A DNA stretch of 64,000 nt from Phycisphaerae bacterium (GTDB lineage: Bacteria > Planctomycetota > Phycisphaerae > UBA1845), in assembly GCA_029260115.1 (NCBI GenBank), contig JAJDDW010000114.1, forward strand, positions 18,504 to 82,503, written 5' to 3'. Of this stretch, positions 4,330 through 36,209 are shown one piece after another (the stretch's first letter is position 1; each line of letters starts with the position of its first letter). The notes below the pieces were generated by a model. The model saw only the letters and a program-made list of their open reading frames with translations, searched no databases and was not told where the DNA came from. Position numbers and translations under genes: made by a program.

Positions 4330-4330
4330 C

Positions 4331-6182: not shown

Positions 6183-6602
6183 CTAGCCATTTATTTTGGC
6201 CTGCAATTTTTCTCTGATTTCATCTGGAATTATTATCGAGTGAAATTTTCCACCTTGGGTGGAACAACATACGGCCGACGATCGACCAGTGGCAATACAC
6301 ACGCCGTCTATTCGAAACTCGCACTTAAAAGAGACGGACTTGTCGGTGATTTCGGTCAAAGTGATGGCTAATTCCACATCATCTTCAAAACGAGCGGGAC
6401 GGGCGTATTCACAGCTAACGGACACGCGAGGCCAGCCAATATGCCCGTCACCGGCTGGGATATTTACGCTGATGCCCAACGATCGCCAGAAGCCGCATTC
6501 CACTTCTTCCATGTATCGAAAATAATTGGAAAAATGAACCACGCCGGCTAGGTCGGTATCGGCGAACTGAACTATTCTGGTCATTGTATAGTGATCGGAC
6601 AT
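6183..6602 (-). CDS. Acyl-CoA thioesterase, hotdog fold (4-hydroxybenzoyl-CoA thioesterase/YbgC family)
   Basis: VQFADTDLAGVVHFSNYFRYME signature and CEYARPARFED. Confidence 0.9.
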   Translation of the reverse strand: MSDHYTMTRIVQFADTDLAGVVHFSNYFRYMEEVECGFWRSLGISVNIPAGDGHIGWPRVSVSCEYARPARFEDDVELAITLTEITDKSVSFKCEFRIDGVCIATGRSSAVCCSTQGGKFHSIIIPDEIREKLQAKING

Positions 6603-6774: not shown

Positions 6775-8442
6775 TCACGCCTTGCCGAAGAACTTTTCTA
6801 CTGTGGCTGTCGACGGCGGTCTTGTGATTAGCGATACCACTACCAGCGACACTGTCGAGACCGAGATGATCGTAGCTACGGGCATCATGTCTAAAAATAG
6901 ATACTCACGGTTGGCGCCATAGCCTGCTTGGGCGAACAGATAAACCCAAGCGACGGCGGTACTAATGACACAGGCGTATGCGCCAGCCGTCGTCGTGCGT
7001 TTCCAATAAAGGGCGGCTGCGACTAGTGGGAACAAGCTGGCAAATCCGCTGAAGCACCATACGCCGAGGGTGAACACACCGCCAGGGCGTGTTTGAGCCA
7101 AGAGATACGTAACGATTACAATGAAAACGACGAAGCCGCGTCCTAGTAATAGGCGCTGTTTATCTGACAGTGAGCCATCTTTGGCGTAGTGAGCCACGAT
7201 GTCGTTAGTGAAAATGCTACCAAGACAAAGGAACTGCGAATCCAATGAAGACATAATCGCGGCGAGGATGCCTGCGGTCAGCAATCCACCTAGTACCGGA
7301 CCCGTGCTGGAATCGACAAGCTTGCCGAGGACCGCGTTGGGGTTAGAAAATCCGTAAGGAATAATGGGCTTGCCGTCTATCATGGCACTGGTAGCCCATA
7401 CGCCAATCAATACGCAGGGCACCCACACGAGCATGATGAGAATGGGATGCGCGATGACGGACAGTTTAAACGATTTCGCGCTTTTCGCGGTTAACCAATG
7501 TTGAAAAAGATGCGGAAACATGCCCACGCTTAGCGGAATAAACATATACGTGAGAAACTTCAGATGGCCAATGCCATGCGGCTTAACCGGCTTGTTCGGC
7601 GCAGTGCCACGCTGGGACTCTGGCTTATTTTTCCAAGCGGCGAATCTCTTTTCATAGACTTTCACGTCGCCTTTGTAGCGGGTGAGTTGGTCATTTTCTC
7701 GCACGGTGCGGCGCAGTTTGTCGGGATTATGCTTTTGCACCATAGCTGTCGCTTCTTTCACTCCGCCGAGCTTGTCGGAAATAGCTGCGAAAGTGACGAC
7801 GCCTAATATGATAAACACAATGGTCTGAAAAGCGTTGGCCCAGGCTGTGCCGCGCACGCCGCCAAAGAAAACGTAAATCATGACGACGATACAAATTAGC
7901 GCTGAGCCATAGGCGTATGGAATAGCGCCAGCAGCACGAGCGGCTGGGCCTACACCAGCCGCGGGAAAGATGTCAGGTAATGCGCCGCCGGTTAATTTTT
8001 CGATCGTCGTGCCAGCGCCCATGACTCCGATGAGAAGGTATGGAATCACAAGGCCTACGAGGATAGGAAAAAGCAATAATCCAAAGTTGTTAGACTCAAA
8101 CCGATCTCTGAAAAACTGAATTTGTGTTGTGTAGCCAAACCGTTTGCCGAATGACCATAACTTAATGCCTATAATGAAGAAACAAGCGGAATGAATGATG
8201 CCAGACCAAGAGGCCATCTTGCCGTATACGCCGATGCCATCTTTAAAAGTGGCGCCGGTCGAGCCGACGAGGGCGAAGGCAGTCATGGTCGTTCCGAACA
8301 ACGACATGAGCAGTAAAAATGGGCCGATGCTGCGGGATGCTAGGAAATAGTCTGCCGATGTTCCTTTGAACAATCGGCTACTGAAAACCCCGAGAATCAA
8401 GAGCAAGCCGAGATAAGCTAAGATAATGAGAAGTTGTGTCAT
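6775..8442 (-). CDS. Sodium:solute symporter family protein
   Basis: DYFLASRSIG, FFGGVRGTAWANAFQ and AAIMSSLDSQ motifs; about 13 TM segments. Confidence 0.93.
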   Translation of the reverse strand: MTQLLIILAYLGLLLILGVFSSRLFKGTSADYFLASRSIGPFLLLMSLFGTTMTAFALVGSTGATFKDGIGVYGKMASWSGIIHSACFFIIGIKLWSFGKRFGYTTQIQFFRDRFESNNFGLLLFPILVGLVIPYLLIGVMGAGTTIEKLTGGALPDIFPAAGVGPAARAAGAIPYAYGSALICIVVMIYVFFGGVRGTAWANAFQTIVFIILGVVTFAAISDKLGGVKEATAMVQKHNPDKLRRTVRENDQLTRYKGDVKVYEKRFAAWKNKPESQRGTAPNKPVKPHGIGHLKFLTYMFIPLSVGMFPHLFQHWLTAKSAKSFKLSVIAHPILIMLVWVPCVLIGVWATSAMIDGKPIIPYGFSNPNAVLGKLVDSSTGPVLGGLLTAGILAAIMSSLDSQFLCLGSIFTNDIVAHYAKDGSLSDKQRLLLGRGFVVFIVIVTYLLAQTRPGGVFTLGVWCFSGFASLFPLVAAALYWKRTTTAGAYACVISTAVAWVYLFAQAGYGANREYLFLDMMPVATIISVSTVSLVVVSLITRPPSTATVEKFFGKA

Positions 8443-8681
8443 GCTTTGCCTCCGTTTTTAGAAGCTCGTGCATTTACCGGTTGGACATCATCCAATTCGC
8501 TTGGCCAACAGTATACTACGGCTAGTGCCCACAAGATGCCGGAGGCGAGTGATATGCCCGCATGATAGGCTAGCCCGATGGGTACGAAACCGAATACTAA
8601 TGTTTCGGAATTATCCCACCACCACCAATCGTGATGAAGGAACGCGAGAAGAATGATTGAGCCGTATATGATTTTTTTCAT
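8439..8681 (-). CDS. Small 2-TM symporter-associated protein (DUF3311-like)
   Basis: MKKIIYG...HHDWWWWD...VFGFVPIGLAYH; ATGA overlaps with both neighbours. Confidence 0.8.
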   Translation of the reverse strand: MKKIIYGSIILLAFLHHDWWWWDNSETLVFGFVPIGLAYHAGISLASGILWALAVVYCWPSELDDVQPVNARASKNGGKA

Positions 8682-9940
8682 GTGGTTTCCGTACCCGTTT
8701 TCAAATCGCTCGGCTGGGGGAGCGTAATCCATTGTCGCATGGTGTCAAACATTTGCGCGACTTCATCGTTAAAGACGTCGCCAATCAGGATTCGCACCAA
8801 GTGGTCGCGGTGGTGTGGGAATTCCTTCATAAATTGGCCGAAACTAAAATCTCGATTATAAAAAGCTTCGACTAGTTGCCGGATCATGTTCATGCCGTGT
8901 AGCAATTCCGGCGCAAAGCAACCCAGCTTGTTCCCTGATAAATCCTTATCGCTTAACCCTTGATGAATGGCGTCGGCGGCTAATTCTCCGCTTTTTAGTG
9001 CCAGCATAATGCCAGACGAATAGACGGGATCCATAAAGCCAAAGGCGTCCCCGATGAGTACCCAACCGTCCCCGGCCATTTGATCGGCGCGGTAGGAAAA
9101 GTCTGTGGTAACGAAGCCTTTGGTGATACGCTCAGCTTTTTCAAGTCGACGCAAGATGCCTGGACACTTCGCGATTTCCTCGTCGAGCGTGACTAAGGGA
9201 TCGTTGCCGCGGCCAGTACAGAGATACGATGGCGGCGCGACTACGCCGATACTGGTGACGCCATTGCAAAGCGGGATATACCAGAACCAGCCATCCCTTT
9301 TTGGCATGTGGATGATGATCGTCGCCCCACTATTGCGCCCTTCATCGCGATACGCCCCTTTGTAATAGGCATAAATCGCCGCGTTTTTGAATTTTGGGTC
9401 AGGGCGGCGCAGTTTCAATTGCTTAGCTAGGATGGAACTCATGCCGGAGGCGTCTACAACTACCTTGGCGAAAGTATCTTCGGAACCGGCATCGGTCACG
9501 ACACGAACGCCAACTGCTTTGCCCCCTTCAAAGAGGACTTCTTTAACACGTACGCCTTCACGCACAATCACTCCCTGTGAAATGGCGTTGTCTAGCATCA
9601 TTCTATCGAATACATCTCGCTCTACCTGCCATGTTATCGAGCAGGGACTGTCATCGCGATCGGTAAAGTAGAATGGTTGAGAGTCCTTGCCGGACGTCGA
9701 GACGAATTGCACACTTTCCTTACGGGGGAAATTTGAAGCTTCCATCTTTTCGAGCATGCCCAATCTTTTGAAGGTCCAATACGTTTGCGGCATGAGCGAC
9801 TCGCCGATATGCGGTCGCGGAAACAATGACTGTTCAAGCACCATCACGTTTCGACCTTGCTGGGCTAAAATGGTCGCGGCTGTCGCACCGGCTGGTCCGC
9901 CGCCAATTATCGCACAATCGTAATCGGCTGTATGGCTCAT
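8678..9940 (-). CDS. FAD-dependent oxidoreductase, flavin-dependent halogenase-like
   Basis: GGGPAG, FPRPHIGESL, FPRK (candidate catalytic Lys), GWFWYIP (WxWxIP) and GDAFGFMDPVYSSG (FxxPxxSxG). Confidence 0.82.
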   Translation of the reverse strand: MSHTADYDCAIIGGGPAGATAATILAQQGRNVMVLEQSLFPRPHIGESLMPQTYWTFKRLGMLEKMEASNFPRKESVQFVSTSGKDSQPFYFTDRDDSPCSITWQVERDVFDRMMLDNAISQGVIVREGVRVKEVLFEGGKAVGVRVVTDAGSEDTFAKVVVDASGMSSILAKQLKLRRPDPKFKNAAIYAYYKGAYRDEGRNSGATIIIHMPKRDGWFWYIPLCNGVTSIGVVAPPSYLCTGRGNDPLVTLDEEIAKCPGILRRLEKAERITKGFVTTDFSYRADQMAGDGWVLIGDAFGFMDPVYSSGIMLALKSGELAADAIHQGLSDKDLSGNKLGCFAPELLHGMNMIRQLVEAFYNRDFSFGQFMKEFPHHRDHLVRILIGDVFNDEVAQMFDTMRQWITLPQPSDLKTGTETT

Positions 9941-10551
9941 GGTTGATCGTCACCTTTATCCGAGAGGCTAATATTATGATCTTGGCTAACATTGAGTACG
10001 ACTTCAAATAGTTCGATGGCGGGCTGATGATGGCAATAGATAATGCCAATGCGGCCAAAGCTTTCCTGGGTGACGACAGGCTCAGTGCTTTTCCAAATAG
10101 CCGCTTCTGGCGAGAGCTGTAGCAGCCAACATGGTTCTATGCGACGAAGCACGTTGTGACTAATCAGAATATCACCCAACGGGCGTTGCTTGGCAAGTAT
10201 CTCCTCGCGCACTTCCGTTGACAGCGCATCAAGGTCTAGACGAACGATACCGTATTCAACAATGGTGTTTGAACTTGGCAAGGTCAACACAATCTCTCTG
10301 GTATAGCAATGCTCATCAAGATGGTATCGCAATACGCGCAGCGCGACAGATTCGCCGTGGTAATTTTGGAGCGTGGTGGTCATGTGGTTTTGATGCGTGA
10401 GTAGCTCGCGCACTGTGCGGGGTAATGACTTGTCGTCAACCGGTTGAATACCGTCAAGGCACATCGGCTGATCGAAGAAAGGCTTCGCGAGAAGAGACAA
10501 GGCCGACAGCGCGTTGTCGCAACTGGTGATGTGGTCAGGCCGGGAGATCAC
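9937..10551 (-). CDS. Chorismate pyruvate-lyase-like protein (UbiC/Rv2949c/UTRA fold)
   Basis: LLTHQNHMTTTLQ, YTREIVL and RPLGDILI match the LL...sxT.xL / REvxL / PLGxxL pattern of chorismate lyases; translationally coupled on both sides. Confidence 0.6.
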   Translation of the reverse strand: MISRPDHITSCDNALSALSLLAKPFFDQPMCLDGIQPVDDKSLPRTVRELLTHQNHMTTTLQNYHGESVALRVLRYHLDEHCYTREIVLTLPSSNTIVEYGIVRLDLDALSTEVREEILAKQRPLGDILISHNVLRRIEPCWLLQLSPEAAIWKSTEPVVTQESFGRIGIIYCHHQPAIELFEVVLNVSQDHNISLSDKGDDQP

Positions 10552-11861
10552 GCTAAGTTGTCACCTTGAAATTGTGGTTCAAAAAAAGCAGGCAACAGCC
10601 CATCCACCCGAAGCAAACCTTGGCGAGACAGATGTAGCTGCTGGCCGGTGACCGTTGCGAAACCTTTGTCGATTAGCGAGTTAACGACGTCTGCATAAAC
10701 ATCCAATACGTCAACATCGAATTTAGCCTGAAAATAAGGGGCGTCGATGCGGCCTAATTTAAGTTGTAATACAAGCTCACGAATCAAAGCTTGGCGCGGT
10801 GTCATTTGCATCGCGCGAGATAGTGGCAGTTCACCGGCTTGTAGCTTGCCGATATAGTCTTCCCATTTGTCGGCGTTTTGATAATGCACACCTTGGAAGT
10901 GAGAAAAGGAGGCTACGCCCATGCCAATCATATCGGCGCCGTGCCATATGGAATCGCGATAAACAAAGCCCGAACCAACCGACGGCTTGACTAGCGTATA
11001 GCCACTGGACACCACATATCCGGCCGCTTCAAAAGCTCGAAAAGCGTAGTCCGTCCAGGCACGCTTGGTGGGCCAATCTGCCACCGGTGAAGCAGTGCCT
11101 GATTGCGTCATTTCATGAGAGATCGTTGTGTTGCGGGGCAGCTCCATTTGATAAATGGTGACGCTGTCCGGGTCGAGTGCGACAGCTTTGCTGACCGTAT
11201 CCTCCCAAGTCTTCGTGGTATCGCCCACCATGCCAGCGATGAGGTCGATGTTAATTTGATCAAATCCAACTTCGCGCGCCCAATCGTAAGCGCGGATAAT
11301 CTCTGGGGATTTATGCGCCCGGCCATTAAGCTCTAACACGTGGTCGTCGAAATGTTCGACGCCTAAACTTAAACGTGTCACGCCGATGGCTTTGATGGTT
11401 TCAAGCTTGCTTTTTTTCAGCGTGCCCGGTTCACATTCAAAAGTTACTTCTTTCGCTTTTTCCCAGTTCCAATATTTTGCGATACGATCGACAAGACGCT
11501 GTAACTGGGCCTCGCTCAAGAACGAGGGAGTTCCGCCGCCAAAGTATACGAATTCAAAGTGACGATCTTTTAGCCCTGCCCGGTCGGCGTACAGGGCGAC
11601 CTCTTGACCAAGGGCGTCGAGATACGTTTCGACTTCGTTGGAATTCTTGTCGGTGTAAACGCGGAAGTAACAAAATTTGCATCGTTTTCTACAAAACGGA
11701 ATATGAATATACAACCCGACGGGCGAGGTATCGGTTAAGGGTTTATCCATAAAGTCATTGGCCTTGGAAATATGCTTAGCCGACCACTCTGAGAACGGTG
11801 GATAGTTAGCGACGAAATAGGTGCCGACTTCAGTTTTATCGTTAAGAATTTCCAAATCCAC
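10548..11861 (-). CDS. HemN-like (class C-type) radical SAM protein
   Basis: LYIHIPFCRKRCKFCYF (CxxxCxxC), YFGGGTPS, RLSLGVE, INIDLIAG. Confidence 0.9.
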   Translation of the reverse strand: MDLEILNDKTEVGTYFVANYPPFSEWSAKHISKANDFMDKPLTDTSPVGLYIHIPFCRKRCKFCYFRVYTDKNSNEVETYLDALGQEVALYADRAGLKDRHFEFVYFGGGTPSFLSEAQLQRLVDRIAKYWNWEKAKEVTFECEPGTLKKSKLETIKAIGVTRLSLGVEHFDDHVLELNGRAHKSPEIIRAYDWAREVGFDQINIDLIAGMVGDTTKTWEDTVSKAVALDPDSVTIYQMELPRNTTISHEMTQSGTASPVADWPTKRAWTDYAFRAFEAAGYVVSSGYTLVKPSVGSGFVYRDSIWHGADMIGMGVASFSHFQGVHYQNADKWEDYIGKLQAGELPLSRAMQMTPRQALIRELVLQLKLGRIDAPYFQAKFDVDVLDVYADVVNSLIDKGFATVTGQQLHLSRQGLLRVDGLLPAFFEPQFQGDNLA

Positions 11862-11971
11862 AGTGTCGGCTCGCTTGGTTCTGTCATTTCGTCAGGGTTA
11901 CCGCCGTCCTGCATCCAATAATGGCCATGGCGCGATTGGCGGACGATTTCGCTTCCTTACATTCCTTAATC

Positions 11972-11999
11972 AGTATAGCGACTTGGCGAAGCGACTCAA
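11972..11999 (-). promoter_or_regulatory. Candidate internal sigma70 promoter (TTGAGT-N16-TATACT) upstream of the radical SAM gene
   Basis: Lies in the 200-bp gap that separates two translationally coupled gene blocks. Confidence 0.45.
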
Positions 12000-12059
12000 T
12001 GTAAAATCTTGTGGACCAACGTATTGGGACGTAGTCGTTACATGCCCCAGATGAGAATC

Positions 12060-13214
12060 TCAGGCGAAGGCCGATGCGTAGATTTCTAGAAGCTCCTCTT
12101 CGCCTACGGGTCGAGGATTAAAGCCTGCAGTCCACTGTTTACCAGCTAGGGCAGCTAAAGCGGGTAGACGGCTGCGATTAACACCGCAATCGTTTAAACG
12201 TGTCGGCAGGCCGCTGTTTGCTAGAAATTTTGATAACTGCTGAGCAAGCAATTCTGGATCATCTACGAGATCTGCGTAGACATTATTTCCTTTAGCACAA
12301 TTATAACGCACCACATGCGGCAGTAACAAACCCACCGCTTGGCCATGGACGATACCACATTGCGATGTCAATGGATTGGCACACGCATGGGCGGCACCTA
12401 ACATGGACTGCTCTATAGCTGCCCCCGCGAGGTGCGCACCTAGCAACATATTCGCCCGCGCTCGATCATCGCCTGGCGATACAATTACAGTTCCATAAGA
12501 CGAGGATAATAACAGCCAAGCCTGTTTAGACAATTCTCGTGACACGTCGTTGCGGCGCGTCGTGCCTGCGGTCTCGACCGCGTGGGCTATGGCATCTATT
12601 CCAGCGGCAGCAGCCACTGCGGCCGGTTGGCTGCTGGTGAGTTGAGGATCGAGAATGGTAAGTCTGGGGCGAAGTCCACCCTCCTTAGGCAAACGACGAT
12701 CTCCGCATACCATCTTTTGTTTAGAATCTACGTCACTAATCAGGGCGAACGATTGGGCTTCGCTACCCGTACCAGCCGTCGTGGGAACAAGTATCGTTGG
12801 CAGCAATGCGTCGGTCGCTTTACCCTCCCCCCAATAATCCGCTATCGTTCGTCCGCCCGTAAGAATCAGGTTGATTCCTTTGGCGCAGTCCATCGCGCTA
12901 CCACCACCCAAACCCACGATGAAGTCTATCGGATGCTGCCGCGCTAATGTCACACCGGCTGCGACGTTATCCGTGGTGGGATTTTCGTGCGTGCCATCGA
13001 AGAGAAAAACATCTACGCCGGCGTCCCGTAAAGATTGTCTTGCCCGATCAGCGTAGCCTGCACGGACTATGCCGGGGTCGGTCACCAATAAGGCACATGT
13101 CGCTCCCTCTTCTCGTGCGCATTGACCTAAATCATCCAGCAATCCATGGCCAAATAGGACGCGCACCGGTGAGTGGGTGAGGATAGCTGGCAGCGTGAAC
13201 GGATCGGAGGTCAT
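12060..13214 (-). CDS. Iron-containing alcohol dehydrogenase
   Basis: GLGGGSAMDCAK, PTTAGTGSE, DAIAHAVE, AHAC and VHG metal-ligand motifs. Start set to ATG 13214 (ATGA overlap with the upstream gene). Confidence 0.92.
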   Translation of the reverse strand: MTSDPFTLPAILTHSPVRVLFGHGLLDDLGQCAREEGATCALLVTDPGIVRAGYADRARQSLRDAGVDVFLFDGTHENPTTDNVAAGVTLARQHPIDFIVGLGGGSAMDCAKGINLILTGGRTIADYWGEGKATDALLPTILVPTTAGTGSEAQSFALISDVDSKQKMVCGDRRLPKEGGLRPRLTILDPQLTSSQPAAVAAAAGIDAIAHAVETAGTTRRNDVSRELSKQAWLLLSSSYGTVIVSPGDDRARANMLLGAHLAGAAIEQSMLGAAHACANPLTSQCGIVHGQAVGLLLPHVVRYNCAKGNNVYADLVDDPELLAQQLSKFLANSGLPTRLNDCGVNRSRLPALAALAGKQWTAGFNPRPVGEEELLEIYASAFA

Positions 13215-14632
13215 GCGGCTGACTCGACTTGGAAAGCCCGCTGACGATAAAGATGCTCGAACAGGTTGCCCTCGTGGGGCTGGTCCCAACTTAGCTGATA
13301 AGTAGGGATCGCGCCGATATTCAATCGATCTATATGAGAACAAGCCATCAAAGTTTTCTTGAATGACTCGTCATGTGTGATGGCTGTGGCAACAAGCGTT
13401 GGGCCTATTGCAGTAGGCATTTGATCGATCGGACACTCAACGACGGAGGCGAACGGAAACAAAAATTCCCGGTTGGAAAGTGGATGATCTCGATCGTCAC
13501 AGTGAATAATCGTCGGTAACAAATAAGCACACTTTCCCAGGTGCGCGAGTCGATCCTGTCCTCGTTGCTTTTGGGTTAGGTCTGTCGCGCCGTCAATGTT
13601 CAAATCGTTATCGATCATGGCAGAAATTTGCGTGGCGACATTTGCATTAGCAAACGCTGCAATCTGAGCGTCTGCATGGTCCGAAGGTAACGCTTGTATA
13701 GCTGAAAGTTTTTTCGCCAGCGCTTCTGCGATCTCTCGCCCATGCCTTGGCGTCCAAACACCGGAAGCATTGATGCAAGATCGGCCTCCATTGGCCGCGA
13801 TGGAGGCCGCGATCATGTCGATATGCTTTTCCCAATCGTCAACCTCATCCTCGCCGAACAATATTTTGCTAAAGCCAGGCCCATGCACTTCGACACGCGG
13901 ATCGTCTTTATACGGCTCGGTCGTAGCGGAACCTCCGAAGAGCATGGAACGATCTACCTGACGAAGTAATTCACTTGCACCAGCATGATCTGTCGGATAA
14001 AAACCGAAAGCTTCCTTGGGGACGCCGGCTTCGATAAACGCTTGAATCATACGGTATGGCGTCCAAGGTTCCTCGCGACCGGGCTTGAGCATGATCGGCG
14101 CTTTGAGTGCGATCGCCGGTGCCCATAATGAATGTACACCGGGCGAGTTGCTTGGCAACACGGCGCCGAATACACGGCCATCTCTGAAGAAACTGAGCGT
14201 GCCACCAGCGCTAGTTCCATGACCAATATCTAGAATGGATAGATCAAAGCCCCGCGTCAGACCGCGAATAACAGTTTCAATATTGCTTAAGATGTTGTAA
14301 ATCTTCGAGGCGTTGTGGCGGCAATATGTGATCGGCATGCCCGTCGTGGCGGAGAGCTGTTTCACATAATCATCGAACGATTGCTTCGAATCGCCAAGCG
14401 GCAGTGAGGCTGTCATGAATAATTCTGCGGCGTGGCGAGACATTTCCATAAGCTCAGCCACGCTAAATCCTTCAAGCACATCGTCGGCTAAGAGACTTTT
14501 GTCGCGACCGATGACGCCGCTGTTTACTTGGCTAACCGAAGCGACTGGCTCTCCGGTGGCATGATGAAGAATATCTACTTTTGTCATGCTCTCGTAAGGT
14601 TGACCGAGTCGCAGTGCGGGGATGTGTAACAT
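13211..14632 (-). CDS. Aldehyde dehydrogenase-superfamily protein, GriD/EhpG-like acyl reductase component
   Basis: VLPSNSPG, LKPG, GGRSCINAS (catalytic Cys), EFLFP. The ELGG motif is replaced by VHGPGFSK. TAATG-coupled to the adenylating enzyme gene. Confidence 0.8.
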   Translation of the reverse strand: MLHIPALRLGQPYESMTKVDILHHATGEPVASVSQVNSGVIGRDKSLLADDVLEGFSVAELMEMSRHAAELFMTASLPLGDSKQSFDDYVKQLSATTGMPITYCRHNASKIYNILSNIETVIRGLTRGFDLSILDIGHGTSAGGTLSFFRDGRVFGAVLPSNSPGVHSLWAPAIALKAPIMLKPGREEPWTPYRMIQAFIEAGVPKEAFGFYPTDHAGASELLRQVDRSMLFGGSATTEPYKDDPRVEVHGPGFSKILFGEDEVDDWEKHIDMIAASIAANGGRSCINASGVWTPRHGREIAEALAKKLSAIQALPSDHADAQIAAFANANVATQISAMIDNDLNIDGATDLTQKQRGQDRLAHLGKCAYLLPTIIHCDDRDHPLSNREFLFPFASVVECPIDQMPTAIGPTLVATAITHDESFKKTLMACSHIDRLNIGAIPTYQLSWDQPHEGNLFEHLYRQRAFQVESAA

Positions 14633-15738
14633 TAATAAACCCCTTCAACAATCGGCGTAGCGAAGCCCGAGAACGGACGTACATCACCAATACCATCCCA
14701 CGCGTAGGCCTCGCATGGCGCATGTCGAATACCTTCGTCGCGTTCTAAAAATCGCGGCATGAAAAATTCTTTGGTTAAAGTCGTAAGACGAGCACGCCCG
14801 GTCTCACCATAATCAACCACGCGGTCGGTTTGATCGGGGTCGACAACCTCAATCATCGCACGCGGCGACGGGGGATAATAGATAACACTATAATTATCAG
14901 CAGGCTCGTACGGCTTATGGCAAGCGAGACCCATCAACGTGTTGCCATATGTCGGGACGAATTCGATCGATCCTTCCAGCAATTCCTCGCGGGCGAAGCG
15001 GTGGAACTGAGCGGTTAATTGCGTACCTCCACAGAATACGCCTTTGATACCCAACTTCTTGAGTGACACCCGCTCGCACAAAGCTTCGAGTAATTTTGGC
15101 GTCGTGAATATGCACTGAATGTTTTTATGCGCGCGGAGCAAAGTCAGCCCTTGGTTGATGGCGTGGTCCTTGTATTCGTGCATTTCTGCCATGCGACCAG
15201 ACTTAATCAGCTTAGTCACCCACCTAGGGTCCAGATCAATGCTAAAGCAAATGCCACCACGAAATTGACACAGATGCTCTACCGCGAGGCGCAACCGGCG
15301 CGGGCCACTAGGACCGAGCATGAGCCAGTCTGCGCCTTTGGGAAAAGCTTCATCGGAAAGCGTACGGCTAAACAGTTCGTAATCGATCTTGAAATCTTCG
15401 ATGTTGATCCGCGCTTTGGGACGCCCCGTACTCCCGCCGGTTTCAAAAACGTAAATCGGCTGGCCGGCACAACCCTTGGGAACCCACCGTCTAATGTCGC
15501 CTTCGCGCAGCCATTCGTCACGAAAATTATCAAACTTCTTCAGATCGTCGTAGACCTGGATTTCTTTTCGCGGATCCCAGCTCAGATTAGCAGCGTAATC
15601 CAGCCAGAATGGGCATCCGGTATCTGGATCAAAGTGCCAGGAGACTGTCTCTCTGGTATGCTCATCCAGGCGTTCTCGCACCTGCTCGATGCGCTGATCC
15701 AAAGATAGTCCTGATGATGTCGTGGAAGATGGTGTCAC
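14632..15738 (-). CDS. Short ANL-superfamily adenylating enzyme, GriC/EhpF-like
   Basis: FETGGSTGRPK P-loop, WHFDPDTGCPFW N-terminus, YGNTLMG, FLERD; only 368 aa, with no full C-terminal subdomain. Confidence 0.75.
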   Translation of the reverse strand: MTPSSTTSSGLSLDQRIEQVRERLDEHTRETVSWHFDPDTGCPFWLDYAANLSWDPRKEIQVYDDLKKFDNFRDEWLREGDIRRWVPKGCAGQPIYVFETGGSTGRPKARINIEDFKIDYELFSRTLSDEAFPKGADWLMLGPSGPRRLRLAVEHLCQFRGGICFSIDLDPRWVTKLIKSGRMAEMHEYKDHAINQGLTLLRAHKNIQCIFTTPKLLEALCERVSLKKLGIKGVFCGGTQLTAQFHRFAREELLEGSIEFVPTYGNTLMGLACHKPYEPADNYSVIYYPPSPRAMIEVVDPDQTDRVVDYGETGRARLTTLTKEFFMPRFLERDEGIRHAPCEAYAWDGIGDVRPFSGFATPIVEGVY

Positions 15739-15828
15739 TGAAAAATTCCTTAACCAATCAAAAACATTACAATAGCCTTATTGGACGCGCTTGGATGCGA
15801 GTAACACATAGCTGCCAACCTACGCAAC

Positions 15829-17355
15829 CTATTTCGATTTCTCGATCGCATACAACGTATTACGATTACTGATATAAAGTACACCATTGGCCACGACAGG
15901 CGTGGTGTACACGGAATTACCTGTATCGTTAACGCCTATTTTTTTCATTTCCTTACCATGTTCCATTACGACAACTTCGCCATCTTCGGTTCCCAGGAAC
16001 ACCTTACCATCTACCACAAATGCTGACCCCCAGATAGCTGACATGGTATCGTATTTCCAATACTGCTTTCCGGTCTTTTCGTCGAAGCAATATAGAAAGC
16101 CGCTAAGATCAGCGTTGTATACCAGGCCATCCGCCACGGTGGCGGAGGACATGGTGCGATGAAAATCGTCGCCTCCGATATGCCACACGAGACCGGTCTG
16201 GGTAATGTCGCCACGTTTGGTGGCATCGATGCTGAAAAAGTGCCCTGGACCTTCACCGTGCTCAGGGTCTTGCCCCACAGCTAAGAGAACTTTGTTATCT
16301 TGGATAACAGGCGTAGCGATGATATTATTTTTCGTGCCACGACCGCCTAGAATCCATTTCGAATCTGCAGGATTCAGATTAAACTTCCAGAGCAATTTGC
16401 CGGTCTTAGCTTCGTAGGAATAACACCATCCATCACCGCCAGAGAAAATTGCCTGGGCGGTCCCATCGATAACGCCATAGGCCGGGGACGACCATTGGCC
16501 ATGCAATACTTTGTCAGCTGGGTGCCCCGCTTCCCACACGATTTTTCCAGTGCGCTTATCTACAGCTAGAAAATCCGGGGCGTCTGGCACGGGCATGTTA
16601 AGGTGTCCTTCGTCCACGCCGTTTGAGGTAGATACGAATATGAGATCACCAGCGCCGACGGGCGAACTTGTCGCTAGGTTATGCGGGAACACTTCTAGAT
16701 CGTCGAACATATCCAAAACCCAGACAATGTCGCCGTCTTGCTTGTCTTTATATTTTTCTTCCTTGAAAGGTCCATCGTTTTCATCATCGAGGAAGCCATT
16801 CAAATCGGCGCACACTAACTCGCAGCGATTACTCACGTAGTATATTCGATCCCCTTCCACCCAAGGTGCAGAACAAATGCCTTGCTCAGGCCAATCGTTC
16901 ACCCTACCGGTCGGCAATTTGTCATGCGTCATCTGCCAGAGAAATTTTCCGGTCTTTTCTTCTACGCAAAGAAGCACACCTTTATCGCCTTTAATGTTCG
17001 GACGAAGGTTACCGTTGTTGTTGGTGCCCACCAATACTTTACCTTGCGCGATAACGGGATTGCCGTAGGTCTGGGAACCAAGCTTAGACTTCCACTTGAT
17101 GTTTAGGCCTGACTTAATATCCCACTTACCTGGAATCCCAGTTTCACCCGAAACCATATTACGATCCGGCGTGCCTCCCCACATGGTCCAATCGCCACGA
17201 TGGGCCTTGGAAAGAGGTTCAGCGTGGGTTGATGTGGCTAGAAGAGATGTGAACAGTATCGCAAGTACCTTAGCGCCAGCGCCGCGCGGGTTGAACCCCG
17301 CGGCTCGATTTTCATGTTGTTTCTTTGTTTGCATTTCGCAATATTTCCTAATCAT
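15829..17355 (-). CDS. Secreted PQQ-binding-like beta-propeller repeat protein
   Basis: Signal peptide, WTMWGGTPDRN, repeated xDxxTGKxxW blades, acidic loop DLNGFLDDENDG. The start may be ATG 17334. Confidence 0.87.
   Translation of the reverse strand: MIRKYCEMQTKKQHENRAAGFNPRGAGAKVLAILFTSLLATSTHAEPLSKAHRGDWTMWGGTPDRNMVSGETGIPGKWDIKSGLNIKWKSKLGSQTYGNPVIAQGKVLVGTNNNGNLRPNIKGDKGVLLCVEEKTGKFLWQMTHDKLPTGRVNDWPEQGICSAPWVEGDRIYYVSNRCELVCADLNGFLDDENDGPFKEEKYKDKQDGDIVWVLDMFDDLEVFPHNLATSSPVGAGDLIFVSTSNGVDEGHLNMPVPDAPDFLAVDKRTGKIVWEAGHPADKVLHGQWSSPAYGVIDGTAQAIFSGGDGWCYSYEAKTGKLLWKFNLNPADSKWILGGRGTKNNIIATPVIQDNKVLLAVGQDPEHGEGPGHFFSIDATKRGDITQTGLVWHIGGDDFHRTMSSATVADGLVYNADLSGFLYCFDEKTGKQYWKYDTMSAIWGSAFVVDGKVFLGTEDGEVVVMEHGKEMKKIGVNDTGNSVYTTPVVANGVLYISNRNTLYAIEKSK
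17282..17307 (+). repeat. REP-like palindrome, copy 4, inside the 5' coding region of the beta-propeller gene
   Basis: CCGCGCGGGTTGAACCCCGCGGCTCG; reads RAAGFNPRG in the protein frame. Confidence 0.7.
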
Positions 17356-19585
17356 TTTTGGTTACTCGATAATTGTCAAAGAAGATCGGCGCTCCCGGTC
17401 GACTGACTGTGGCCCCTTTGGAATAAGCATATAAGCCTGGACTACCCTCTGTGTTGGGAAGTGGGTCGGTCATTTCGATGGTCCAAGAGCCTGGCTCTGC
17501 GCTATCCTTGGGCCATACTTTGCCGCGCACGATGGCTTTCCCGTCACGAATATCAACGCTCAACTTACCCCGATACCACACGTCTGGCTCCATCACAAAA
17601 TCTATGTCTTTTTGTACACGCGGTATTGGAGAATACGTTACCAGCCTAAGCTGTTTATCTCGGCCAAGCATAATCATTTTATACCGGGCGTTAATAATGC
17701 CCATATCCGGAAGCGTAGGCCGCTTGCCCGGCTTTAGCTCACCACGCATATCCACTTCCACCGTATACCCGGTAGGAATCGGCGAAGTAGCGAAGGCCCG
17801 CATACGCATATACTTCGCAGACGGACGCAACGCCATTTTTTGGAACACGACAGATCCATCTTTATCGACCAGCTTTGTCTTAGCATCCACGCCTATCCAT
17901 CCAGGGGGCTGCGTGCCCACCTTCATATCGTCGAAGTTTTCTTCGATCGGAAGACGCGGGCTGACGCGAATGCGAGACTGGGCTTTCAATTTGCCATACG
18001 TCGCCGTGACTATGCCTGCAGAGAAAGCATTGGCCGCGTCGGCACTAAACGAGCCATCACTTTTGATCGAACCACGCGTACCAGCGACCTCCCAAACGAC
18101 ATCCGGTGATGCAATCAATACGCCGTGATTATCATATAGTTGAGCAGCCAATTTCAGCGTCTCGCCCGGATAGAGCGTAGCCTCTGCAGGCACAACTAGT
18201 AGGCTTGAAGGTGTTTTCGTGTCGGCAGGTACTTCAGCCATCATCGATGGAATAGGTAGGGGCATAGCCTTGGCATCTCTACTACCAAGGCAATAGGTCG
18301 CATCATTGTTCATGAAATAGACGCGACCATTGGCCACTGCGGGCGTGCCATTGACCTCGATCACGATCTCATCTTCACGCGTAAATTCCTTGGTAGAAAT
18401 CATTTCGCAATGGTCACCGGCATCTTTAAGAATGTGAAAATGAGCATTCACTTCGCCGTAGTAGATGTAGCCATCCGCCGTCGCCGTGGGAGAGCCTTTC
18501 GCCACCCGCCCCATGCTTTCTGACCAATAGGATTGACCAGTTTTAGCGTCCAAACAGTGCATCGTCGCAGAATTCGTCACGGCATACAAACGACCGTTAG
18601 CCAGTGCCGGAGAGGAGTAACCAACTTGAAGCCCATCCGCCCGCCAGACCTCACCCGTTTCTGTGATGTCACCTTTACCGGAAGCATCAATACACACTAC
18701 CCGGCCCATCACCGTACCAGAAATATTTTCCTCGCTATGGGAGATGTATACGTATTTTCCGTCAGCCACCGCCGAGCTATTTAGGCCGCCTTTGCTGAGT
18801 TTAAATGTCCAGACCTTCTCGCCGGTTCGTGCTTTCATACCATATACGTTGCCGTCAGCGTTACCAGCAACGAGCAATCGCTGGCCATCTACTACCGTAA
18901 CCACTGGCGCGGAGTAGGTGGTATTAAGCGGCTTGTCACCAGGCTGCGCCCACCAAGCGACGTCGCCAGTTCGTTTATCGAACGCATAATAGCGATGTCC
19001 AGCTTTTTTCTTGCCAGTGCCCCACTGTGTAAGAATATACGTGAAGCTAATAATCACGCGGTCTTCATCAATGATCGGCGTTTGCAATCTGCCGCCATAC
19101 CCGCTAGATCGTCCGAAGGTTTCAGTCAATGAATGTTGCCACAAAAGTTTACCATCACGAGATAGGCAAATCATCTGCCCGCCCGTCCCGTGGGCATACA
19201 CGTTGCCGGTTTCGGGATCGCCGACCACAGAGGTCCACCCCAAACGATTCTCCACAATATCGGTGTGGAACACGTTGATGTGATGTTCCCAAATCATTTT
19301 CCCGGTGTCAGCATCAAGACACACGATGCGTTCGTGCAATGTTTCGTTGCCGCCGGCTGGGGCAATCATAAACACGCGACCATCCATCACGATGGGCGTT
19401 GATCGACCGCCGACGGGTGCTTGCCAGAGTACGCCAGAGCCGTCTTCGGGCCAGTCTGTCACCATCGCGTTTTCTAGCGTTGCGCCCATTTGCTGAGGGC
19501 CTCGCCATGATGGCCAATCGTTTGCCTGGGCGAGTGAGCTGCATAAACTCATGATGATCGCGGTTAAGTAGGTTGTGCGTTTCAT
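17348..19585 (-). CDS. Secreted PQQ-like beta-propeller protein with C-terminal Ig-like and probable beta-sandwich (lectin-like) domains
   Basis: Signal peptide, NDWPSWRGP, propeller repeats to about aa 435, then LLVVPAEATLYPGETLKL (Ig-like) and WYRGKLSV...VRGKVWP...FFDNYRV. Confidence 0.85.
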   Translation of the reverse strand: MKRTTYLTAIIMSLCSSLAQANDWPSWRGPQQMGATLENAMVTDWPEDGSGVLWQAPVGGRSTPIVMDGRVFMIAPAGGNETLHERIVCLDADTGKMIWEHHINVFHTDIVENRLGWTSVVGDPETGNVYAHGTGGQMICLSRDGKLLWQHSLTETFGRSSGYGGRLQTPIIDEDRVIISFTYILTQWGTGKKKAGHRYYAFDKRTGDVAWWAQPGDKPLNTTYSAPVVTVVDGQRLLVAGNADGNVYGMKARTGEKVWTFKLSKGGLNSSAVADGKYVYISHSEENISGTVMGRVVCIDASGKGDITETGEVWRADGLQVGYSSPALANGRLYAVTNSATMHCLDAKTGQSYWSESMGRVAKGSPTATADGYIYYGEVNAHFHILKDAGDHCEMISTKEFTREDEIVIEVNGTPAVANGRVYFMNNDATYCLGSRDAKAMPLPIPSMMAEVPADTKTPSSLLVVPAEATLYPGETLKLAAQLYDNHGVLIASPDVVWEVAGTRGSIKSDGSFSADAANAFSAGIVTATYGKLKAQSRIRVSPRLPIEENFDDMKVGTQPPGWIGVDAKTKLVDKDGSVVFQKMALRPSAKYMRMRAFATSPIPTGYTVEVDMRGELKPGKRPTLPDMGIINARYKMIMLGRDKQLRLVTYSPIPRVQKDIDFVMEPDVWYRGKLSVDIRDGKAIVRGKVWPKDSAEPGSWTIEMTDPLPNTEGSPGLYAYSKGATVSRPGAPIFFDNYRVTKND

Positions 19586-19726: not shown

Positions 19727-21031
19727 TTACCCGGAACGGTTTGTATGAACAAGTCGCTTGGCCTTCATATCGAACCGTGGCAATGTATCAGCCTTGACCG
19801 AAGCGACGTCGGGGCGAAATAACAGTTTATCCCGCACCTTATTGGCGATTCGATCTTCCAACCCGGCTACCATAGCCGAACTTATAGTCTCTATCTCAAT
19901 ACATAAATTGCAAATGCCGCCACTATGGTCAGCTATCAAGCGAAATTCCGCGACTTCGGAAAACTGACGAATGATAGCCTCGATCGCAGAAGGGAACACG
20001 TTATTGCCGCGAATAAAAAGCATATCATCAATACGCCCCTGAATCCCGCCTTCTAACCTAGCGAAACACCGGCCACAATCACATTGATCGCGTGTGAGAA
20101 CGACCAAATCGCCCGTTCGATATCGAATGACGGGGCTGGTGGATCTGCCCAACGTGGTCAATACTAATTCACCGGGCTGACCGTCAGCGACAGCCGTTTG
20201 CGTATCCGCATCGACGACCTCCGCGATAAATTCAGTTTCGATAACATGAACACCGCCCGGCGATTCGACACACTCAAAGCCCCACGCACCAGCTTCAGTC
20301 ATACCCGCGTGATCGAAAATCCTTGCCCCCCAGCCAGTCTCGATGCGCTGCCGAACGGCTGGAATGCTGCCGCCCGGCTCGCCGCCAACAATAATCATGC
20401 GCACAGCCGACGATGATAAATCGATCGACTCCTCAGAGGCGACATCTACCATGCGCATCGCGTAAGTCGGCGTGCAGCAAATGACCGTCGCGCGATTGTC
20501 TAAAATGTATTGCAAACGAGCCTTGGTTGTCATGCCGCCGGCAGCTAATACCCTATTGCCTAACATCTGCGCCGCATCGAAGGCCATCCAAAAACCTATG
20601 AATGGCCCAAACGAAAATGGAAACACAACGACATCGTCGTCTCGAAGACCTGCCGCCCTAAATACGATACTCCAGCACGTCTTGCACCAGGACCACGATT
20701 CCTCGCTATCAAGCCAGCGCAAAGGCTGCCCGCTTTTCGTACCAGACGTCTGATGTAATCGAACGCAATCACTCAACGCACACGAATGATTCGTACCATA
20801 AGGAGGATGAGCATCAATATCTGCCTGAATCTCCGATCGGGTCGTAAATGGCAAATGACTATACGAGTCTGAAAGCGGATCAAACGAAATGCCGCCGAGC
20901 TTGTGTTGATAAAATGGATTGTTCGCCCGCACGACATCCAGCAGCGCAGCTAGCTTGCGTCTTTGAAGTTGTTCGATCGAATCTCGATCCAACGTCTCTT
21001 GTTCAGCGCAATAATAAGGCATACGCGTCAA
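19727..21031 (-). CDS. Phenylacetate--CoA ligase family (PaaK-like) protein
   Basis: LHQTSGT, HAGMTE, RYRTGDL, GRIDDMLFIRGNNVFPS, LPRFDMKAKR. Confidence 0.9.
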   Translation of the reverse strand: MTRMPYYCAEQETLDRDSIEQLQRRKLAALLDVVRANNPFYQHKLGGISFDPLSDSYSHLPFTTRSEIQADIDAHPPYGTNHSCALSDCVRLHQTSGTKSGQPLRWLDSEESWSWCKTCWSIVFRAAGLRDDDVVVFPFSFGPFIGFWMAFDAAQMLGNRVLAAGGMTTKARLQYILDNRATVICCTPTYAMRMVDVASEESIDLSSSAVRMIIVGGEPGGSIPAVRQRIETGWGARIFDHAGMTEAGAWGFECVESPGGVHVIETEFIAEVVDADTQTAVADGQPGELVLTTLGRSTSPVIRYRTGDLVVLTRDQCDCGRCFARLEGGIQGRIDDMLFIRGNNVFPSAIEAIIRQFSEVAEFRLIADHSGGICNLCIEIETISSAMVAGLEDRIANKVRDKLLFRPDVASVKADTLPRFDMKAKRLVHTNRSG

Positions 21032-21265
21032 CTCTCAGCAACATCGGCGAACTAGGCAACACCCGCAATGGTCGGCAATCTGTCCACCACTTACGAACAA
21101 TTATCCATCTTCCCATTATCAGGCTATTATGGCAACGACCAACGAGTGTCTCATTGTGTAATTTTTCCTCACTACGCAGTAAGTTAACGAGACTCACAAC
21201 CAATGTGACATTCGTGATACTTGTTTACTAGCTGCTTTCCGGCATGTCTGGTTATGATGTCACAC

Positions 21266-23308: not shown

Positions 23309-23318
23309 GAACGTCTGC

Positions 23319-34427: not shown

Positions 34428-34620
34428 TAGTCGTGCAAGAACGCCTCTGCCATAAAATAATCGCTCCGGCTGGGTGAGCGGGCTATATCCTGCTTCCACC
34501 CTCCTGCCTGACGTAATCCATCCAGCCTATTTCACAATCCTCCCACCCGACGATACACTACAATCCAGTCGCGTAGTGGAACGAAGTTATAGTCGGACAC
34601 AAAAGCTGGAGGATCGCGTT

Positions 34621-36201: not shown

Positions 36202-36209
36202 GTCATTTT

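Follow-up and report, generated by a model that had tools for sequence, protein, structure and literature searches.

EhpF (PDB 3hgu, 3hgv and 3l2k) is a truncated adenylating enzyme from phenazine synthesis in Pantoea and belongs, with its partner EhpG, to the D-alanylgriseoluteic acid (ehp) cluster of Pantoea agglomerans. The Pantoea locus that we used for comparison has phzA/B, isochorismatase, anthranilate-synthase-like, PhzF and PhzG-like genes and, after them, the genes for a 366-aa AMP-binding protein (EhpF) and a 473-aa ALDH protein (EhpG). GriC and GriD act in grixazone synthesis in Streptomyces griseus; according to the passage of PMC10179220 that cites Suzuki et al. 2007, GriC makes an acyl-AMP, which GriD reduces to the aldehyde. 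Both characterised family members are reported to use aromatic acids, phenazine-1,6-dicarboxylate and 3,4-AHBA. The carboxylic acid reductases (CAR) of Nocardia and Mycobacterium perform the same net reaction, acid, ATP and NAD(P)H to aldehyde, on a single A-PCP-R chain with a carrier and an SDR-type reductase domain. The LuxE/LuxC fatty acid reductase of luminous bacteria combines an acyl-activating protein of ~370 aa with an ALDH-superfamily reductase of ~480 aa that has an active-site Cys. Among planctomycetes, Planctomycetales strain 10988 is reported to make 3,5-dibromo-p-anisic acid, for which a chorismate-lyase-like/halogenase gene pair, BaaA/BaaB, is proposed without genetic proof in section 2.3 of bioRxiv 10.1101/723874.

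We compared these systems with a locus in a 64,000-nucleotide stretch of DNA from a Phycisphaerae bacterium (the window). An EhpF/EhpG-like pair and a following iron-containing alcohol dehydrogenase (Fe-ADH) gene lie here within a cluster of ~18 genes, 23.6 kb in length, at 3067-26714:

3067-4377, minus strand: PQQ_2/BamB-like β-propeller (Pfam PQQ_2, 4.7e-23)
4331-5545, minus strand: second PQQ_2/BamB-like β-propeller (Pfam PQQ_2, 1.9e-46; Beta-prop_ACSF4, 209.9 bits)
5564-6019, minus strand: small hydrophobic membrane protein, 151 aa, from its translation (no match in Pfam or NCBIfam)
6183-6602, minus strand: 4HBT-fold acyl-CoA thioesterase, 139 aa (Pfam 4HBT_2, 1.6e-12)
6775-8442, minus strand: sodium:solute symporter, 555 aa (Pfam SSF, 5.3e-40)
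8439-8732, minus strand: DUF3311 small membrane protein, symporter partner (Pfam DUF3311, 3.9e-06; 27.3 bits, slightly under the cut-off of 30)
8678-9940, minus strand: flavin-dependent halogenase, 420 aa (PDB halogenase matches, hallmark residues)
9937-10551, minus strand: chorismate-lyase-fold (DUF98/UbiC-like) protein, 204 aa (AF2, Foldseek, hhalign)
10548-11861, minus strand: HemN-like radical SAM enzyme, 437 aa (Pfam Radical_SAM and HemN_C)
12060-13214, minus strand: Group III Fe-ADH, 384 aa (Pfam Fe-ADH and ADH_Fe_C)
13211-14632, minus strand: EhpG-type ALDH-fold partner, 473 aa, putative thioester reductase (BLASTP, AF2, Foldseek, conserved residues)
14632-15738, minus strand: EhpF-family truncated ANL adenylating enzyme, 368 aa, GTG start, no C-terminal ANL subdomain (PDB EhpF match, Pfam)
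15829-17355, minus strand: exported β-propeller, 508 aa, directly upstream of the trio (Pfam PQQ_2)
17348-19585, minus strand: exported β-propeller, 745 aa, upstream of the trio with the preceding gene (Pfam PQQ_2)
19727-21031, minus strand: PaaK-like aryl/acyl-CoA ligase, 434 aa (Pfam AMP-binding and AMP-binding_C_2; NCBIfam PaaK models at 234 and 206 bits, under cut-off)
21221-22594, plus strand: GT4 glycosyltransferase, 457 aa (Pfam Glycos_transf_1, 2.2e-28)
22634-26714, plus strand: MacB/LolD-type ABC ATPase, 224 aa, and giant FtsX-type permease, 1131 aa (Pfam ABC_tran, 1.6e-37; FtsX, 2.8e-19)

The trio was placed from the open reading frames and their translations. The EhpF-like and ALDH-like genes share a TAATG overlap (...GTT TAT TAA TG...), and the ALDH-like and Fe-ADH genes an ATGA overlap (...GCC GCA TGA CC...). 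The Fe-ADH reading frame spans 12060-13343, and the protein has 384 residues if the ATG at 13214, within the ATGA overlap, is the start. The translations contain the ETGGSTGRPK, GRSC and VHGPG motifs. Thus, the preliminary description of a short adenylating enzyme coupled to an ALDH-fold protein with a retained Cys, coupled in turn to an Fe-ADH, was correct in its motifs and junctions. Of 17 loci from other Planctomycetota genomes that have a close EhpF-like gene, 11 show the identical three-gene order, and chance therefore does not explain it.

The comparison with EhpF that the preliminary description had suggested gave a full-length match (PDB 3hgu/3l2k, E 7.3e-44, residues 28-368 of 368 onto 27-369 of 369), and the identity to EhpF of the Pantoea ehp cluster is 32% (E 2e-46). 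The only ANL domain is Pfam AMP-binding (2.2e-08), with no AMP-binding_C; EhpF likewise lacks the ANL C-terminal subdomain, and both proteins end in EGVY. The phosphate-binding loop of ANL enzymes reads T/S-G-G-S/T-T-G-x-P-K and is ETGGSTGRPK in the 368-aa protein, where G102 is invariant among 40 sequences and E99, G101, G105 and P107 are kept in at least 90%. Its assignment as an EhpF-family truncated ANL enzyme is supported, with acyl-adenylate formation as the predicted activity. In a quick tree, the clade of the window's protein (20 rows, SH-aLRT 100) is separate from the EhpF clade (10 rows, 100). Members from many different phyla retain 50-79% identity, which sets them apart from a strain-specific antibiotic gene, and our literature search found no paper on this clade. 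Among more distant EhpF-like proteins there are fusions to a Zn-ADH (P0227) and to a class III aminotransferase (P0204), two kinds of enzyme that consume aldehydes.

The 473-aa protein matches Pantoea EhpG, encoded by the ALDH gene after ehpF, at E 3e-34 (BLASTP, 24% identity over 416 columns), and Pfam Aldedh at 1.6e-14. Its AF2 model (pLDDT 90.2) was matched by Foldseek to ALDHs with TM of 0.73-0.79. Four residues, N162, K183, H250 and C286, are invariant among 17 sequences. On alignment to KauB, N162, K183 and C286 fall on the Asn, Lys and Cys, whereas H250 falls on the Glu of LEAGGKSP, a site that is Q in EhpG. The catalytic Cys and oxyanion Asn are therefore retained and the general-base Glu of ALDHs is replaced by His. 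This supports an EhpG homologue that has kept the Cys and lost the Glu, with a predicted role in NAD(P)H-dependent aldehyde formation.

The window pair and EhpF/EhpG share their families, near-equal sizes (368/473 and 366/473 aa), gene order, a stop/start overlap and an ALDH-fold partner with Cys kept and Glu absent. They differ in that identity is just 32% and 24% and the adenylating enzymes occupy separate clades; the ehp cluster has phenazine genes and an SDR, whereas the window has an Fe-ADH instead of the SDR. Pfam scans of the reading frames around the trio found neither phenazine nor 3,4-AHBA genes, in agreement with the preliminary description; the window thereby differs also from GriC/GriD, whose substrate is 3,4-AHBA. 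To GriC/GriD we can liken the pair by description, from the passage cited above, in which the same chemistry is reported without a carrier protein. Membership of the type I CAR family was rejected because the carrier and the SDR-type reductase are both absent: neither a phosphopantetheine carrier nor an SDR-type reductase domain was found in the trio or any scanned cluster reading frame, and the reductase here has an ALDH fold. A carrier-protein gene would also have no room in the cluster, since the largest intergenic gap is 198 bp. LuxE/LuxC show a similar two-protein size pattern; membership was rejected because at E <= 0.01 neither protein matched the LuxE or LuxC model of Pfam, the only matches being to AMP-binding and Aldedh, and no LuxD-type transferase is present.

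We examined the neighbouring genes for a likely substrate. The 204-aa protein (AF2 pLDDT 93.4) has 2nwi (DUF98; E 9e-8, TMt 0.74) among its top Foldseek matches, and also matches E. coli chorismate lyase UbiC (1jd3/1fw9/1g81/1g1b, E 2e-6 to 2e-5). The hhalign match to E. coli UbiC is weak (probability 68.7%, E 4.5e-5); in it M57 and R85 stand opposite Met and Arg of UbiC, whose PLG is aligned as well. The product-binding residues of UbiC we take to be Met34, Arg76 and Glu155. The hhalign alignment ends before the catalytic Glu, and an invariant Glu, E183, lies on the last strand of the 204-aa protein. The adjoining halogenase matches PDB halogenases at 3.6e-67 (8zop) to 4e-47, including PltA (1.9e-59), CndH, Bmp2 and CmlS. 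Among 10 sequences, K74, WxWxIP (218-223; W218, W220, I222, P223) and GD (297-298) are invariant, and the GxGxxG glycines G13, G15 and G18 are kept in at least 90%. BaaA/BaaB, likened here by description, has the same adjacency of a chorismate-lyase-like gene and a flavin halogenase gene; section 2.3 of that account mentions no reductase, radical SAM enzyme or propellers (bioRxiv 10.1101/723874). Because the cluster encodes a chorismate-lyase-fold protein and a flavin halogenase, our best guess for the trio is a (halo)4-hydroxybenzoate-type substrate. The radical SAM protein matches HemN (1olt, 1.6e-37) and NocN (8.5e-28).

Gene content elsewhere links these parts. Of 201 sampled Planctomycetota genomes, 39 have a close EhpF-like gene, and precisely these 39 have a radical SAM orthologue; halogenase orthologues (E <= 1e-80) occur in 38 of these 39 and none of the other 162, and orthologues of the 508-aa propeller in 35 of the 39, with thresholds that were set after the bimodal E-values were seen and with related genomes that are not independent. 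Homologues of the 151-aa membrane protein also sit in the cluster in other genomes. Thus, the trio is not the self-contained module of the preliminary description, but part of a co-occurring system of ~18 genes. Conservation of the cluster extends to many bacterial groups that are poorly studied.

Homology alone backs the reading of the pair as a two-component carboxylate reductase, and the trio most likely turns a carboxylic acid into an alcohol. We propose that the 368-aa protein would use ATP to convert the acid to an acyl-adenylate, that Cys286 of the 473-aa partner would then take up the acyl group in thioester linkage, and that NAD(P)H would reduce the thioester to the free aldehyde. His250 occupies the place of the general-base Glu that would otherwise hydrolyse the thioester. 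The Fe-ADH would then convert the aldehyde to a primary alcohol. We give a probability of about 0.6 to the whole proposal, an EhpF/EhpG-type carrier-free reductase with an Fe-ADH that performs one step of the 3067-26714 pathway on a 4-hydroxybenzoate-type substrate. It is based on homology, fold, conserved residues, linkage and co-occurrence, from which we infer the catalytic steps, the substrate and the order of steps. The preliminary reading of a carrier-free aryl-carboxylate reductase extended by an ADH is thus upheld in part: the Ehp homology, the missing carrier gene, the Fe-ADH that follows and the chorismate-lyase-fold and halogenase neighbours all favour it, and against it the Fe-ADH is separable from the reductase pair.

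The Fe-ADH protein matches Pfam Fe-ADH (1.2e-45, 155.6 bits, cut-off 31.3) and ADH_Fe_C (2.7e-29, 102.7 bits, cut-off 27). In three genomes where the genes are scattered (L110, L111 and L113), the Fe-ADH gene stands between two propeller genes, the second followed by the radical SAM gene, and the reductase pair lies elsewhere. Where the Fe-ADH is separated from the pair in other genomes, a glycosyltransferase and an ABC exporter often come next instead; a GT4 gene, and not an ADH, stands behind the pair in 32 of 72 loci. An Fe-ADH orthologue at at least 46% identity was found in two of five acidobacterial genomes with the pair, and not in the other three. Every NCBIfam match is under cut-off, the top one being ErcA (229.9 bits, cut-off 550). 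The enzyme might therefore serve another step of the cluster, or sense a metabolite as an ErcA-like protein, and the ATGA coupling would reflect insertion of the pair into a conserved gene order. We consider this unlikely. Of 72 assessable loci, 25 have the Fe-ADH gene immediately behind the ALDH-like gene, four of them without an adjacent EhpF-like gene, and an aldehyde-producing enzyme just upstream is an obvious source of substrate. The translation has the GGGS...D..K dinucleotide motif and a D, H, H, H metal-ligand pattern, at positions that we assume from FucO. The AGA pathway also carries an acid through to a hydroxymethyl group.

The substrate of the pair could instead be an aliphatic or lipid acid, with the GT4 enzyme making an alkyl glycoside for export by the MacB-type ABC system and the halogenase and chorismate-lyase genes serving another branch. 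Cyanobacterial heterocyst glycolipids follow a parallel logic, with an alcohol aglycone, a glycosyltransferase and the DevBCA exporter. In 32 of 72 assessable loci the gene right behind the ALDH-like one is the GT4 gene; genes for GT4, the ABC ATPase and the giant FtsX permease come straight after the pair in 32 of the 72, mostly in Acidobacteriota. NCBIfam gives the ABC ATPase 188.9 bits for the DevA family and 262.6 bits for LolD, each under cut-off, and the nearest named families to the Fe-ADH act on small aliphatic substrates, namely alcohols. However, the aromatic acids reported for the two characterised family members, the absence of Pfam LuxC and LuxE matches and the halogenase orthologues that accompany the pair in 38 of 39 genomes make an aliphatic substrate quite improbable.

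The symporter gene is translationally coupled into the operon, and in Sinorhizobium DUF3311 genes accompany the MctP-type monocarboxylate permease, as described in PMC9100948. These points would suit an uptake and salvage or catabolic system, in which an environmental monocarboxylate is imported by the symporter with its DUF3311 subunit, then reduced and modified. Only 4 of 45 fully flanked loci have the symporter and 3 have DUF3311, so we regard the symporter as accessory. Catabolic pathways seldom spend ATP on reducing an acid to an alcohol, and a likely source of an aromatic acid is already encoded in the cluster; uptake is thus a very unlikely role. We give hardly any weight to the idea that the 473-aa protein works by itself, oxidatively, as a conventional NAD(P)+-dependent aldehyde dehydrogenase: it has the ALDH fold, Cys and Asn but carries His for the general-base Glu in 17/17 sequences, is far nearer EhpG than any solved ALDH (best E 1.8e-07) and has an EhpF-like gene immediately upstream in 32 of 68 assessable loci.

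On the proposed reduction of a 4-hydroxybenzoate-type acid, the wider pathway may be sketched. The chorismate-lyase-fold protein would make the acid and the flavin halogenase would halogenate it; after reduction, the benzyl-type alcohol would probably be glycosylated by the GT4 enzyme, and the MacB-type ABC system would then probably send the product outwards, towards the four exported propellers. The N-termini of the 508-aa and 745-aa propellers resemble signal peptides in translation. More speculatively, and with considerable doubt, the trio could be one step of a new small-molecule system. In it, a halogenated 4-hydroxybenzoate would be reduced to the benzyl alcohol; HemN-like radical SAM enzymes of a new branch would modify this alcohol and, once glycosylated, it would be transferred by the MacB-type ABC system to the periplasm, there to act as a cofactor or building block for the four co-conserved propellers. 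Such a system would be common to Planctomycetota, Acidobacteriota, Latescibacterota, Poribacteria, Gemmatimonadota, Armatimonadota, Verrucomicrobiota and Omnitrophota. If this is true, we would be dealing with a conserved pathway for the envelope or a cofactor, not with a strain-specific antibiotic.

The trio comprises three minus-strand open reading frames (ORFs), whose Pfam matches agree with the adenylating, ALDH-fold and Fe-ADH identities put forward in a preliminary description of this DNA. The features within the window are as follows.

Positions 3067–26714: the whole recurring gene set, bounded by glutaminyl-tRNA synthetase and glutamate dehydrogenase.
Positions 12060–13343, minus strand: Fe-ADH ORF (Pfam Fe-ADH/ADH_Fe_C), 384 aa when read from the ATG at 13214.
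Positions 13211–14632, minus strand: ORF of the ALDH-fold partner, 473 aa (Pfam Aldedh).
Positions 14632–15738, minus strand: ORF of the EhpF-like adenylating protein, 368 aa (Pfam AMP-binding).

Both of the gene overlaps that had been described can be read in the sequence. The EhpF-like and ALDH-like genes meet at TAT TAA TG, where the stop codon overlaps the next ATG (TAATG), and the ALDH-like and Fe-ADH genes meet at GCA TGA, where the ATG at 13214 overlaps the stop (ATGA) to give the 384-aa product. The motifs ETGGSTGRPK, GRSC and VHGPG are likewise all present in the translations. Scanning 11700–16000 for promoters and terminators gave no signal: six promoter-like and five terminator-like sites were counted, where shuffled sequences averaged 4.6 and 4.3. 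The sequencing runs that contain this stretch are three DNA runs of one study, possibly including its source, with no RNA run listed.

We compared the 368-aa protein to solved structures. EhpF, the truncated adenylating enzyme of a Pantoea phenazine pathway (PDB 3hgu, 3l2k), matches residues 28–368 with an E-value of 7.3e-44, as anticipated in the preliminary description, and no other solved structure matches below E 0.9. Both proteins end in EGVY, and a Pfam scan found no ANL C-terminal subdomain in the 368-aa protein.

For the 473-aa partner, a tblastn search of plasmids returned 19 records, four of them from Pantoea agglomerans. One of the four holds the ehp cluster, in which phzA/B-, isochorismatase-, anthranilate-synthase-, PhzF- and PhzG-like genes are followed by an AMP-binding gene of 366 aa and, overlapping it, an ALDH gene of 473 aa (EhpG). 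EhpG matches the window protein with E 3e-34 and 24% identity, while the best solved ALDH reaches E 1.8e-07. The AF2 model (pLDDT 90.2) superimposes onto ALDHs with TM scores of 0.73–0.79 at 12–18% identity. Residues N162, K183, H250, C286 and E389 are invariant in 17 orthologues. Alignment with KauB, a solved ALDH, places N162 on the oxyanion Asn, K183 on the cofactor Lys and C286 on the catalytic Cys. The Glu of LEAGGKSP in KauB corresponds to H250 in the window protein and to Gln in EhpG. A reductase role would fit these proteins, since the ALDH scaffold could form a thioester but lacks the hydrolytic base. The position after KPG varies among the 17 orthologues, and no NAD or NADP preference was assigned. 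Residues 449–456, WDQPHEGN, are invariant at seven of eight positions in 17 sequences (the exception is D450) and recognisable in EhpG as PHDG. We could not assign this stretch to any ordinary ALDH motif; a candidate role for it is contact with the adenylating partner. EhpF- and EhpG-like genes also occur in a phenazine-type cluster on an IncFIB plasmid of E. coli O170:H18 (NZ_CP076707.1), alongside an NRPS gene and a clbA-type gene for a phosphopantetheinyl transferase.

Membership of the pair in LuxC/LuxE was rejected on the Pfam scan. Homology, fold and conserved residues instead give good support to the pair being an EhpF/EhpG-type carrier-free reductase, an assignment that we regard as highly probable. 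For the whole statement, that such a reductase is followed by an alcohol dehydrogenase and is correctly placed in its pathway, we put the probability at about 0.6. To our knowledge, two antibiotic pathways are the only ones in which carboxylate reductases of two proteins without a carrier have been described. The chemistry proposed for the window pair is stated for GriC/GriD of the grixazone pathway in PMC10179220, and PMC3175449 has EhpF-O converting phenazine-1,6-dicarboxylate to AGA. Our literature search found no paper on the EhpF-like clade or its cluster.

The EhpF-like family is large. At least 8000 relatives were found at E 1e-5 in a 90%-clustered database, where all 8000 scored candidates passed, and the best 120 of these share 74–91% identity; a 50%-clustered library holds 278 clusters at E ≤ 1e-30. 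In a quick IQ-TREE search of 46 rows, the window protein lies in a 20-row clade and Pantoea EhpF in a separate 10-row clade, each with SH-aLRT 100. A "hypothetical protein" beside an ALDH gene on a Streptomyces plasmid was not taken as a stand-in for GriC; its branch in the tree is very long (4.75). Apparent EhpF-ALDH(-FeADH) fusions (proteins P0363–P0365) were rejected as fusion evidence, the two that were inspected (P0364 and P0365) being single-member calls with frameshift-like garbled stretches. Two distant EhpF-like domains are fused to other enzymes, one to a class III aminotransferase (P0204, 824 aa) and one to a Zn-dependent alcohol dehydrogenase (P0227, 725 aa). Both partners use aldehydes, so that an aldehyde product of the family would fit, and the fusions suggest acid-to-amine and acid-to-alcohol variants.

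Next, we searched 20 loci from other Planctomycetota genomes with the window genes by tblastn. The trio is found in order in 11 of the 17 loci with a close EhpF-like gene; in a further five the pair occurs but the ADH is missing, and in one the EhpF-like and Fe-ADH genes are present and the ALDH gene is not. Across the 20 loci the recurring neighbours are two propeller genes upstream of the trio, then the radical SAM gene, the 204-aa gene, the halogenase and GT4, as well as a thioesterase, a small membrane protein, a PaaK-like ligase, the ABC ATPase and the giant FtsX permease. Thus, the three-gene module of the preliminary description stands as a conserved gene order, but is only part of a larger recurring set. 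No intergenic gap in the cluster exceeds 198 bp, too little to hold a gene for a carrier protein, in keeping with the carrier-free system that had been proposed. The pair-only loci L005, L007, L009 and L011 have no common context in their flanks. One genome (G183) has two close EhpF-like genes, one in the big cluster (L004) with Fe-ADH directly after it and no ALDH-like gene, the other (L005) on another contig and paired with an ALDH-like gene. The propeller at 4331–5545 (minus strand) matches Beta-prop_ACSF4 with 209.9 bits against a cut-off of 133. This family is the propeller domain that eukaryotic ACSF4 carries fused to an adenylating enzyme, so that propellers of this kind are connected with ANL enzymes a second time, in a way as yet unexplained.

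We then examined co-occurrence in 201 genomes sampled evenly across Planctomycetota. The EhpF-like query matched 54 genomes; 39 of them have E-values of 7.1e-116 or lower, whereas the matches in the other 15 lie between 1.7e-23 and 3.5e-51. Radical SAM matches at E ≤ 1e-90 were found in exactly the same 39 genomes, in some of which the two genes lie megabases apart (G095, G173, G156, G043, G070 and G190). The halogenase query matched 51 genomes at E ≤ 1e-60, with 38 at E ≤ 2.1e-82 that are all among the 39; the remaining member, G067 (87% complete), matches only at 1e-65, and 12 genomes outside the 39 have weaker, paralogue-level matches. The first propeller, searched with seven candidates scored per genome, was found at E ≤ 1e-80 in 38 genomes (35 within the 39 and three outside), and tblastn of the loci showed that two of the four genomes missed (G066 and G172) do carry the gene. 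The linkage of the EhpF-like, radical SAM, halogenase and propeller genes is strong; thresholds were set after bimodal E-values were seen and related genomes are not independent, and our reading of this linkage is qualitative, with no statistical weight.

A wider search, of species-representative genomes, gave at least 596 relatives of the ALDH-like protein. The best 80 of these share 50–67% identity and, by record title, come from Planctomycetota, Acidobacteriota, Latescibacterota, Poribacteria, Gemmatimonadetes, Chthonomonadaceae, Verrucomicrobiia and Omnitrophota, with one Actinomycetota MAG and three MAGs labelled, as deposited, Heliobacteriaceae or Heliomicrobium. The long layout runs propellers, pair, Fe-ADH, propeller, radical SAM and halogenase, and the short layout pair, GT4, ABC ATPase and FtsX permease. 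Immediately upstream of the ALDH-like gene, 32 loci have the EhpF-like gene, three have a different cluster gene and 33 have no window gene (12 not assessable); immediately downstream, 25 loci have Fe-ADH, 32 have GT4, one has a propeller and 14 have none (eight not assessable). Four of five short-layout acidobacterial genomes have a radical SAM orthologue (54–56% identity) elsewhere in the genome.

The third protein is a group III Fe-ADH by Pfam. It falls short of the cut-off in all named NCBIfam models, among which ErcA, lactaldehyde reductase and GbsB fit best. Its translation has visible dinucleotide-binding and metal-ligand patterns of the kind present in FucO. It was found at ≥46% identity in only two of the five short-layout acidobacterial genomes, three scattered genomes place it between propellers, adjoining the radical SAM gene and away from the pair, and four loci have adjacent ALDH-like and Fe-ADH genes without an adjacent EhpF-like gene. 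On these layouts, the Fe-ADH is a member of the system and not a fixed third subunit of the reductase.

The neighbouring genes hint at the substrate. Pfam gave no match for the 204-aa protein, but it is modelled with a chorismate lyase fold (pLDDT 93.4), for which the top Foldseek matches are DUF98 (2nwi), four E. coli UbiC entries and then UTRA domains. A profile of 39 homologues aligns with E. coli UbiC at a probability of 68.7%, placing M57, R85 and PLG on the UbiC Met, Arg and PLG and ending before the catalytic Glu. Flavin-dependent halogenases include the 420-aa protein (8zop, 3.6e-67; PltA, 1.9e-59), in which the Lys and WxWxIP are invariant, and the radical SAM enzyme is HemN-like (1olt, 1.6e-37; NocN, 8.5e-28) and below every NCBIfam cut-off. 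The radical SAM and halogenase genes of one Planctomycetota genome read through as one ORF of 916 aa (L010:13028-15778), and the chorismate-lyase-fold and halogenase genes of another as one of 695 aa (L018:1534-3621); these are possible natural fusions tying the three proteins together. A planctomycete is reported to make 3,5-dibromo-p-anisic acid, for which Panter et al. (bioRxiv 10.1101/723874) propose, without genetic proof, a chorismate-lyase-like gene adjoining a flavin halogenase gene as the source. A comparable combination lies in the window at 9937–10551 (chorismate-lyase fold) and 8678–9940 (halogenase). Further 4-hydroxybenzoate-containing and halogenated planctomycetal compounds appear in a review (PMC12078418). 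Given the chorismate-lyase-fold protein, the halogenase and these compounds, our best guess for the acid substrate is a halogenated 4-hydroxybenzoate, at about one chance in three.

Elsewhere in the window, positions 34474–37526 (plus strand) encode a 3-hydroxyanthranilate dioxygenase (Pfam 3-HAO, 1.4e-61), an Amidohydro_2 enzyme that is possibly ACMSD-like and an adjoining kynureninase-like protein, which together resemble a block of the kynurenine pathway. At 30200–33262 (minus strand) lies a gene for a peptidase of the thermolysin family (M4), 1020 aa long, with a C-terminal dockerin-like match and an InhA-like MAM match.

A reductase type of two antibiotic pathways is seen here as a very strongly conserved clade, whose members share 50–79% identity between phyla. 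Co-occurrence ties it to a halogenase, a new branch of HemN-like radical SAM enzymes, an ABC exporter and four exported propellers. Once the substrate is identified, the biocatalysis toolbox would gain a compact ATP-driven module from acid to alcohol, and the origin of planctomycetal halogenated aromatics could be explained. Hundreds of genes now annotated as "hypothetical", in bacteria of soil, sea and sponges that are abundant but poorly cultured, would then also have a function.
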